Below are positions 5,198 through 5,264 of a stretch of DNA of 58,082 nucleotides, piece by piece. Each line of letters opens with the position of its first letter. Positions within the stretch are counted from its first letter, which is position 1. A model generated the notes under the pieces. The model did no database searches and was not told where the DNA came from. It saw only the letters and a program-made list of their open reading frames with translations. Origin of the DNA: Candidatus Dojkabacteria bacterium. GTDB taxonomy: Bacteria > Patescibacteriota > Dojkabacteria > SC72. The position numbers were made by a program, and so were the translations under genes. The stretch spans positions 1 to 58,082 of the forward strand of contig JAQVKD010000002.1 of NCBI GenBank assembly GCA_028694805.1. Direction: 5' to 3'.

Positions 5198-5221
5198 TTC
5201 ATCCTGTGCTAGAGTCTCTAA
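5198..5221 (+). repeat. Right arm of the 24-nt inverted repeat; overlaps stem III, the cleavage site and stem I of the hammerhead
   Basis: TTCATCCTGTGCTAGAGTCTCTAA is the imperfect reverse complement of 4362-4385. Confidence 0.7.
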
Positions 5222-5264
5222 GATTATATTTATCTTACTGATGAGTCCTTAAGGACGAAAGACT
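5213..5264 (+). ncRNA. Hammerhead self-cleaving ribozyme, type III topology (predicted cut between 5218 and 5219)
   Basis: The RNA reads AGUCU C^ UAAGAU uauauuu AUCUUA CUGAUGA GUCC uuaa GGAC GAA AGACU. Stem I is 5219-5224/5232-5237 (6 bp). The CUGAUGA core is 5238-5244. Stem II is 5245-5248/5253-5256 (4 bp, closed by G10.1:C11.1). GAA is 5257-5259. Stem III is 5213-5217/5260-5264 (5 bp, including A15.1:U16.1). C17 is 5218. Confidence 0.8.

Follow-up and report, generated by a model that had tools for sequence, protein, structure and literature searches.

Self-cleaving hammerhead RNAs of types I and III are known from bacterial intergenic regions and from metagenomes (de la Pena and Garcia-Robles 2010, as presented in PMC6155905), and both PMC6155905 and Perreault et al. 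2011 (PMC3088659) place bacterial examples beside small non-conserved open reading frames (ORFs), often near integrases. Most of those known lie in prophage-like, poorly defined contexts, and their function in bacteria is still an open question: the roles of bacterial hammerheads are termed "largely elusive", and glmS is the only well-understood self-cleaving ribozyme of bacteria (PMC6765202, PMC6155905). Here we describe a type III hammerhead motif at positions 5213-5264 (+ strand) of a 58,082-nt stretch of Candidatus Dojkabacteria DNA (contig JAQVKD010000002.1, assembly GCA_028694805.1), the whole of which is called the window below. The motif lies in the spacer between a small hypervariable gene and a convergent gene for a family-2 glycosyltransferase (GT2), and its 5' arm has a second conserved partner in a helix, designated P1, that ends at the predicted cut. 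An earlier note on this DNA had set type III apart as a viroid and satellite topology rather than the common bacterial type II, which overstated the case: intergenic hammerheads of types I and III have been on record for bacteria since 2010 (PMC6155905, PMC3088659). The motif is canonical and its class known; what is new is the host lineage, the chromosomal synteny, the single-gene unit, and the competing helix together with a predicted long-range pairing, or panhandle, of the transcript. A literature search found no report linking hammerheads with the candidate phyla radiation (CPR), Patescibacteria or Dojkabacteria.

The likeness to Rfam family RF00008 and to bacterial type III hammerheads extends to an identical core, the A15.1-U16.1 and G10.1-C11.1 pairs, C17, three helices with stem III open, a stem I 2 bp longer than stem II, the intergenic position beside a small non-conserved ORF and, in some relatives of the window, a tyrosine recombinase nearby. 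Differences from that family are a score below the curated cut-off, a short loop 2 (UUAA) and an AU-rich stem I. Unlike known bacterial hammerheads, that of the window is a single copy, neither clustered nor associated with a prophage; it is chromosomal and vertically conserved at one syntenic position across a CPR lineage, and it belongs to a simple, defined unit with a recognisable promoter, leader, single ORF, ribozyme and terminator. A decayed copy and a lineage without the hammerhead serve as natural controls beside the conserved competing helix, and the locus is a well-defined, testable setting in which capture of an RNA 3' end can be set against gating of a ribozyme.

Competing folds have precedents. 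In the hammerheads of Avsunviroidae, and in upstream "attenuator" helices of other ribozymes, a more stable alternative fold sequesters a ribozyme strand; these cases serve RNA replication (cleavage versus ligation, circular genomes) or were seen on engineered transcripts. The window likewise has a ribozyme strand with two exclusive partners, the non-catalytic fold being predicted the more stable, but its competitor P1 lies in the 3' untranslated region (3'UTR) of a bacterial mRNA and ends at the cleavage site. In mammalian Clec2 a discontinuous hammerhead occupies the 3'UTR (Martick et al. 2008, via PMC6765202). It too stands between a stop codon and a 3'-end-forming signal, and its cleavage removes the normal 3' end; it is eukaryotic, its parts lie hundreds of nucleotides apart, and it lowers expression because the polyadenylation signal is taken away, whereas the window hammerhead is contiguous, bacterial, and upstream of an intrinsic terminator whose lost hairpin P1 could replace. 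The window shares with glmS the placement of a bacterial self-cleaving RNA in an mRNA untranslated region, cleavage here being predicted; that of glmS yields a fragment with a 5'-OH and is connected with the fate of the mRNA (PMC6765202). The glmS ribozyme differs in its fold, its 5'UTR position, its metabolite cofactor and its single gene family, and no ligand pocket is evident in the window.

The hammerhead motif between two convergent genes

The motif and the genes on either side of it are as follows.

5213-5264, + strand: type III hammerhead ribozyme motif, recognised by sequence, Rfam match, descriptor scan and syntenic conservation with compensated changes
4545-5132, + strand: small hypervariable gene of 195 aa; ORF with N-terminal membrane helix, disordered linker and beta-sandwich ectodomain
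5263-6087, - strand: convergent family-2 glycosyltransferase gene, GT2; Pfam PF00535, E = 6.5e-41

Read 5' to 3' with loops in lower case, the motif is AGUCU-C-UAAGAU-uauauuu-AUCUUA-CUGAUGA-GUCC-uuaa-GGAC-GAA-AGACU. Stem III, which is open, pairs AGUCU (5213-5217) with AGACU (5260-5264); stem I pairs UAAGAU (5219-5224) with AUCUUA (5232-5237) across a 7-nt loop; and stem II pairs GUCC (5245-5248) with GGAC (5253-5256) across UUAA. Core positions C3-U4-G5-A6-N7-G8-A9 are CUGAUGA (5238-5244) and G12-A13-A14 are GAA (5257-5259), with A15.1-U16.1 at A5260-U5217, G10.1-C11.1 at G5245-C5256, and C17 at C5218, a residue other than G as the class needs. At the level of sequence, every defining feature of a type III hammerhead is present, and the predicted cleavage point is C5218/U5219. 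The coordinates of stems, core, C17 and loops given in the earlier note match to the base, and its description of a complete, non-coding type III motif between convergent genes is borne out: the upstream ORF ends at 5132, the GT2 stop codon occupies 5263-5265, and motif and GT2 overlap by 2 nt.

Occurrence of the motif in the window is far beyond chance. A type III descriptor scan picked out a single site in the window and gave no match in 400 windows simulated with a first-order Markov model, in line with the earlier contention that it is no compositional accident. The heptamer CTGATGA is present 12 times, near the chance level (shuffle mean 9.7), and only the copy at 5238 has the full motif; that no other copy has the full context had been correctly noted, though from six copies rather than 12, and with one placed at 27427 that starts at 27426. 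In a search at E-value thresholds, RF00008 (Hammerhead_3) matches 5211-5266 end to end with 42.6 bits, with E = 2.5e-8 in a local search and 5.8e-6 over the whole window. The covariance-model check that had been proposed thus gave a significant match, one that falls short of the curated gathering score of 48.5, a deficit due to the AU-rich stem I and to a loop 2 of 4 nt. Being below that score, the hammerhead is missed by a default annotation run: a default Rfam scan of the window at gathering thresholds reported two tRNAs and nothing else. Default Rfam annotation passes over a whole clade of real hammerheads in the AT-rich genomes of a candidate phylum.

The minimum free energy fold of 5205-5272 (RNAfold) is the hammerhead secondary structure. 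Fast hammerhead cleavage at cellular Mg2+ needs tertiary contacts between loops 1 and 2. The UUAA of loop 2 and the two ends of loop 1 (UA...UUU) are kept among relatives, and stem I (6 bp) exceeds stem II (4 bp) by 2 bp, a difference that has been tied to the pseudoknot contact (PMC3088659). The hammerhead in the window is very probably active as a self-cleaving ribozyme.

Conservation and compensated change among relatives

Homologues of the GT2 protein are numerous (319 at E <= 1e-40, the best listed being 71-90% identical), and several, close ones included, carry the source names Candidatus Dojkabacteria or candidate division WS6; the genome is thus of the CPR, as had been surmised. We used this protein as the anchor for homologous loci and fetched contigs at 90, 89, 86, 82, 80, 77 and 74% identity; L-numbers label the contigs or lineages recovered. 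All contigs so fetched carry the hammerhead on the strand opposite GT2, just past the GT2 stop codon. The hammerhead-bearing set comprises eight lineages of Candidatus Dojkabacteria (GT2 74-100% identical) represented by about 40 contigs from JGI, ENA, NCBI and Logan, and throughout them the motif stands 3' of a small gene at one syntenic position. Its forms in the relatives are these.

L011 and L012: identical to the window
L013: loop 1 A->C relative to the window
L014-L022: loop 1 longer by 2 nt; 3' strand of stem III AGAUUCUA, giving an 8-bp stem with one G-U
L023: stem III as in L014
L024-L033: loop 1 UACAUUU
L034-L043, including NCBI GCA_028681365.1: stem III AAUCU/AGAUU
L044-L050: stem I UAGGAU/AUCCUA; stem II GUCU/AGAC; 21-nt insertions in both loops

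The loops range in length from 4-9 nt up to 21 nt. The large-loop form of L044 was not detected by a search with Rfam Hammerhead_3 and was misaligned by MAFFT, and a covariance-model alignment was used instead; our own covariance model, built from six sequences, recovers every copy (L044 at 38 bits). In the alignment of seven distinct hammerheads, 105 of 105 stem cells are standard pairs, as opposed to only 33-50% in control structures whose partners were slid by 1-3 columns. Each stem has one fully compensated pair among the seven sequences (A-U->G-C in stem I, C-G->U-A in stem II, G-C/G-U/A-U in stem III), and the core positions (CUGAUGA, GAA) are invariant in all of them. The comparison of homologous loci that the earlier note had suggested therefore found what it looked for, a core that is kept and changes that are compensated in all three stems. 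Since the changes are limited to loops and compensated stem positions, beside a spacer that is unalignable, the alignment bears the signature of selection on the hammerhead fold. In L024, L034 and L044 a bidirectional intrinsic terminator stands between the hammerhead and the GT2 stop codon, and so GT2 coding does not account for the conservation of the hammerhead.

In some relatives the motif is missing or damaged. The sister group L001, L004 and L006, whose GT2 is 56% identical to that of the window, lacks a precise block of 41 nt that spans loop 1, the 3' half of stem I, core and stem II as well as the greater part of the stem III 3' strand, and it retains sequence matching the hammerhead 5' arm. 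There was a single gain or loss of the hammerhead, close to the base of the clade that bears it. A decayed hammerhead occurs at 906-962 of L002, a 1-kb contig of 1.8x coverage, with C17->G, G8->U and the 5' strand of stem I replaced, between flanks nearly identical to the L014 type; it is a natural knock-out or, possibly, an error of assembly. A search of genome and metagenome contigs with the pattern TTCATCCTGTGCTAGNGTNTC, which is specific to one cassette type, found one true relative, L006, and chance matches in coding regions (L005, L007-L010). L006 (CAZYNJ010000015.1) is labelled 'Candidatus Saccharibacteria' by its submitter at a locus otherwise of Dojkabacteria, which may be a matter of binning or labelling.

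Several observations weigh against an active hammerhead maintained by selection. Stability of its fold is ordinary (-11.9 kcal/mol, z = -0.79 by RNAfold); Rfam scores stay below the 48.5 cut-off in every lineage (40.7-44.5 bits in the short-loop relatives); and loop 2 of the window, a would-be partner of loop 1 in a tertiary contact, is only UUAA. Covariation amounts to few independent events, one per stem in seven distinct sequences, and a shuffle control reached the observed covariation score in 7 of 500 shuffles. The decayed copy in L002 and the absence from L001, L004 and L006 make the hammerhead dispensable. Sub-threshold scores, unremarkable stability, and decay or absence without loss of the locus are also the points in favour of a neutral passenger, that is, an inactive remnant (say, from an earlier insertion of a mobile element) or an accident of composition, preserved by recent shared ancestry alone. 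We consider this very unlikely in view of the simulations (0 of 400) and the whole-window E-value, of a core that is invariant and three stems that are compensated at a GT2 identity of only 74% while loops and spacer have become unalignable, and of the absence of phage genes nearby; a search of 2.9 million viral contigs (IMG/VR) for the stem II/core string of the window hammerhead also gave no match.

Helix P1 and the 3' end of the transcript

Beyond what the earlier note described, the locus has P1, an inverted repeat, hypervariability of the gene, a conserved leader and a + strand terminator. The elements around the transcript 3' end are the following.

5153-5163, + strand: 5' strand of P1, GAGACCUAGCA, pairing with 5207-5218 in minimum free energy folds
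5207-5218, + strand: 3' strand of P1, UGCUAG-A-GUCUC, its last 6 nt being the 5' strand of stem III and C17
5374-5405, + strand: intrinsic terminator, GAGCUAGG-UUUAAUA-CCUAGCUC then U7; a perfect hairpin with an 8-bp stem

Every lineage has a + strand terminator downstream of the hammerhead, either intergenic or embedded in GT2 and never both. The embedded form is confined to the window, L011, L013, L014 and L023, the lineages without an intergenic hairpin; at 5374-5405 it runs antisense through the last GT2 codons, about 110 nt further downstream. In L024, L034 and L044, which have the intergenic bidirectional hairpin and U-run, the same GT2 codons are degenerate and form neither hairpin nor T-run. 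This either/or pattern speaks for + strand transcription that crosses the hammerhead and must be stopped, and the terminator appears to have relocated into the coding region.

P1 and stem III depend on a common 5' arm and are mutually exclusive, and within P1 it is the cleavage-site residue C5218 that pairs with G5153. P1 is found in every lineage as a helix of 8-13 bp that ends 0-3 nt from the cut and closes off 43-83 nt whose sequences are unrelated. The variable region supplies a 5' strand of P1 that shifts in sequence and register (GAGAC-C with a bulge, GACUC, GAUUC, GAGACUACU) and always complements the fixed hammerhead 5' arm; in L034-L043, G16.4->A in the arm is matched by U in the 5' strand of P1 and by U in the 3' strand of stem III. 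The hammerhead-less L001, L004 and L006 keep P1 as GAAAC/GUUUC with a U-G wobble, and because such a wobble would be a C-A mismatch on the other strand, an RNA of the + strand is favoured. Comparison across lineages shows P1 to be a selected alternative partner of the hammerhead 5' arm, ending at the cut site. In RNAfold predictions for the 3'UTR, from stop codon to hammerhead end, P1 rather than stem III is present in nine of nine minimum free energy structures, and the fold predicted for the 5' cleavage product contains P1 in every lineage, with a flush end in the window and an overhang of up to 3 nt in others. A role for P1 as GT2 terminator was rejected as general, a U-run following antisense P1 in some lineages only.

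We lean cautiously towards a reading in which the ribozyme trims the mRNA's 3' end, within the 3'UTR of a Dojkabacteria chromosomal gene, and P1 captures the new end. The transcript would cleave itself between C5218 and U5219. Because of the type III topology, most of the ribozyme, together with the terminator, would leave on the 3' fragment, which would begin with a 5'-OH, and the mRNA would retain the 6-nt arm AGUCUC with a 2',3'-cyclic phosphate end. That arm would re-pair with the upstream GAGAC and complete P1, giving a mature mRNA that ends in a helix of 8-13 bp with an overhang of 0-3 nt. Completion of P1 would block re-ligation and make cleavage irreversible, and would presumably shield the 3' end; before cleavage, on the folding order we envisage, competition between P1 and stem III would limit the cleavage rate.

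To the counterpoints already gathered must be added the predicted energetics. Forcing the hammerhead over P1 in the uncleaved 3'UTR costs 1.4-9.6 kcal/mol (8.1 in the window), and with P1 transcribed first the active fold may be rare unless P1 is opened; the dominance of P1 in these models is no less compatible with a regulatory switch than with simple end-trimming. The ribozyme would then be conditional, its 5' arm locked in P1 and cleavage ensuing only once P1 is opened, and cleavage, by stripping the terminator hairpin, would alter mRNA lifetime and act as an expression switch for a variable surface protein. Such gating accords with P1 being the preferred fold in all nine 3'UTRs and being made before the 3' strand of stem III. 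Among its conceivable openers are a terminating ribosome, temperature or a protein. The 5' strand of P1 lies 9-10 nt past the stop codon in four lineages, where a terminating ribosome could reach it, but stop-to-P1 spacing is 9-46 nt overall, and opening by the ribosome was rejected as a general explanation. A conserved ligand-binding domain, as in a riboswitch-type allosteric ribozyme, was also looked for and none was found: the interior of P1 varies in length and sequence, has no Rfam match and, not being conserved, offers no aptamer-like ligand pocket.

The bracketing repeat, the variable gene and their surroundings

A further candidate opener is an inverted repeat placed around the gene.

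4372-4385, + strand: left arm of the inverted repeat, core TAGCACAGGATGAA, with an imperfect extension back to 4354
5198-5211, + strand: right arm, core TTCATCCTGTGCTA, overlapping the inner half of the 3' strand of P1

The right arm ends 1 nt before stem III. A repeat search delimited arms of 32 nt (4354-4385/5198-5229), 78% complementary with a 14-nt perfect core, and a perfect inverted repeat of 12-14 nt brackets the variable segment in all lineages, the hammerhead-less ones included; its core is elsewhere TAGCGTGTGGTGA or TAGCGTGTGATG, both arms changing together. In predicted folds of transcripts of about 1 kb the equivalents of 4372-4385 and 5198-5211 pair in seven of eight lineages, long-range predictions for AU-rich RNAs of this length being unreliable and weak evidence. 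Once the panhandle has formed, the hammerhead fold is penalised less, by 2.2-4.8 kcal/mol (3.1 versus 8.1 in the window), and the panhandle abuts stem III. A 13-14 bp pairing of 5'UTR and 3'UTR could in this way displace the inner half of P1 and open it, and the predicted panhandles, the lowered cost of the hammerhead and the joint change of the arms in all lineages speak for gating. The poor reliability of such folds speaks against it, as does the presence of the repeat in hammerhead-less lineages, which means that it did not evolve for the ribozyme; moreover, the repeat could equally be an RNA duplex between the untranslated regions or a DNA recombination site. A gated ribozyme is the main rival to end-trimming, and we regard it as possible but doubtful. 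Similarly tentative is a three-way switch at the 3' border of the hypervariable cassette, in which the arm would pair with the P1 strand (off, or product capture) or with the 3' strand of stem III (on), and a 13-14 bp panhandle closing the mRNA would strip the inner part of P1 and tip the balance toward cleavage. If true, conformational gating would be described for the first time in a natural hammerhead of a bacterial chromosome, and a bacterial hammerhead would have its first concrete cellular job, the programmed maturation of the 3' end, or the control of the lifetime, of one mRNA.

The segment between the repeat arms holds the hypervariable gene. Its 195-aa product has only three homologues in a search of 5.8 billion proteins; an AlphaFold model (pLDDT 78) has a transmembrane helix joined by a disordered linker to a beta-sandwich, whose only fold matches are weak and cupin-like. 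The slot between leader and hammerhead encodes proteins of 142-221 aa, all starting with a membrane helix, and those of the window and L011-L050 make up at least three families, between which BLASTP finds no relationship; none has a match in Pfam. Alleles that differ are found together in single samples, and contigs end at points of divergence between them. The allele of the window is nearest that of a distant hammerhead-less lineage (43% identity) and not those of its closest GT2 relatives.

Such variability raises a further explanation at the level of DNA, namely that the repeat marks an invertible or exchangeable cassette for a site-specific recombinase and that the hammerhead trims the leaving transcript, a reading of the repeat that is compatible with either end-trimming or gating. 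In all lineages the perfect repeat cores coincide exactly with the two borders of the hypervariable segment, the one slot is filled by unrelated protein families, and the affinity of the window cassette with a distant lineage (GT2 56%, cassette protein 43%) suggests lateral exchange. L001 and L044 have a tyrosine recombinase gene (integrase, PF00589) at a distance of 4-6 kb, and proximity to integrases and to small non-conserved ORFs is common among bacterial hammerheads (PMC3088659). Of the features expected of an inverton, flanking repeats are present, but only one orientation was found: in all of about 45 contigs the small gene is convergent with GT2, a weak negative given that assemblies under-report minority orientations. 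Contigs break inside P1 or the ORF and not at the repeats, no recombinase was identified beside the window locus, where two ORFs of 173 and 784 aa have no Pfam match, and a DNA cassette leaves unexplained why P1 tracks the hammerhead arm. We judge it improbable. Trimming with capture by P1, the reading we prefer, draws on a transcription unit whose order is promoter, leader, small hypervariable gene, P1-closed spacer, hammerhead and + strand terminator. Its upstream elements are given here.

4165-4194, + strand: promoter-like TTGATA-17-TATAAT, a putative promoter read from the sequence
4198-4371, + strand: conserved 5' leader of about 180 nt, from alignments

TTGA and TATAGTATAAT of the promoter are invariant in eight aligned lineages, and TATAGTATAAT is also present in the hammerhead-less L003. 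The leader, likewise shared with L003, is nearly invariant across lineages whose coding regions were replaced; it holds an invariant hairpin, UGAGUUC-UUAUAU-GAACUCA, at 4290-4309, and its covariation is weak because the sequence hardly varies. Rfam searches of the leader at permissive settings gave no family, only microRNA-hairpin noise. A second ribozyme there was considered on a 25-bit match of our own model to L044 (11741-11795, - strand; window equivalent about 4262-4318) and rejected, CUGAUGA and GAAA being missing; the match has two hairpins spaced as stems I and II and some resemblance (AUGAGUUCUU..GAAC), and could be an ancient dead copy or a coincidence. The leader also contains a near-palindrome at 4244-4258. 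In the cassette-borne part of the 5'UTR, a long AU-rich hairpin (4432-4487) with 28-nt arms and GC-rich ends CCCCGCC/GGUGGGG sits about 45 nt upstream of the ribosome-binding site and has equivalents in L002 and L003.

G+C content of the DNA analysed is 28-37% in 2-kb windows, and an exact-sequence look-up of the two proteins flanking the hammerhead gave no match. The two tRNA genes, at 23900-23983 and 47758-47844 (both - strand), have long variable arms; an Rfam 'Plastid-psbl-rps4' match at 47758-47809 (+ strand) is spurious, being the antisense of the second. The 173-aa and 784-aa ORFs noted above occupy 9695-12560. Relatives have at that spot, beyond the gene for a 1181-aa membrane protein, the tyrosine recombinase PF00589 (L001 4996-6363; L044 3579-4997), and the region is a second variable spot in the neighbourhood.

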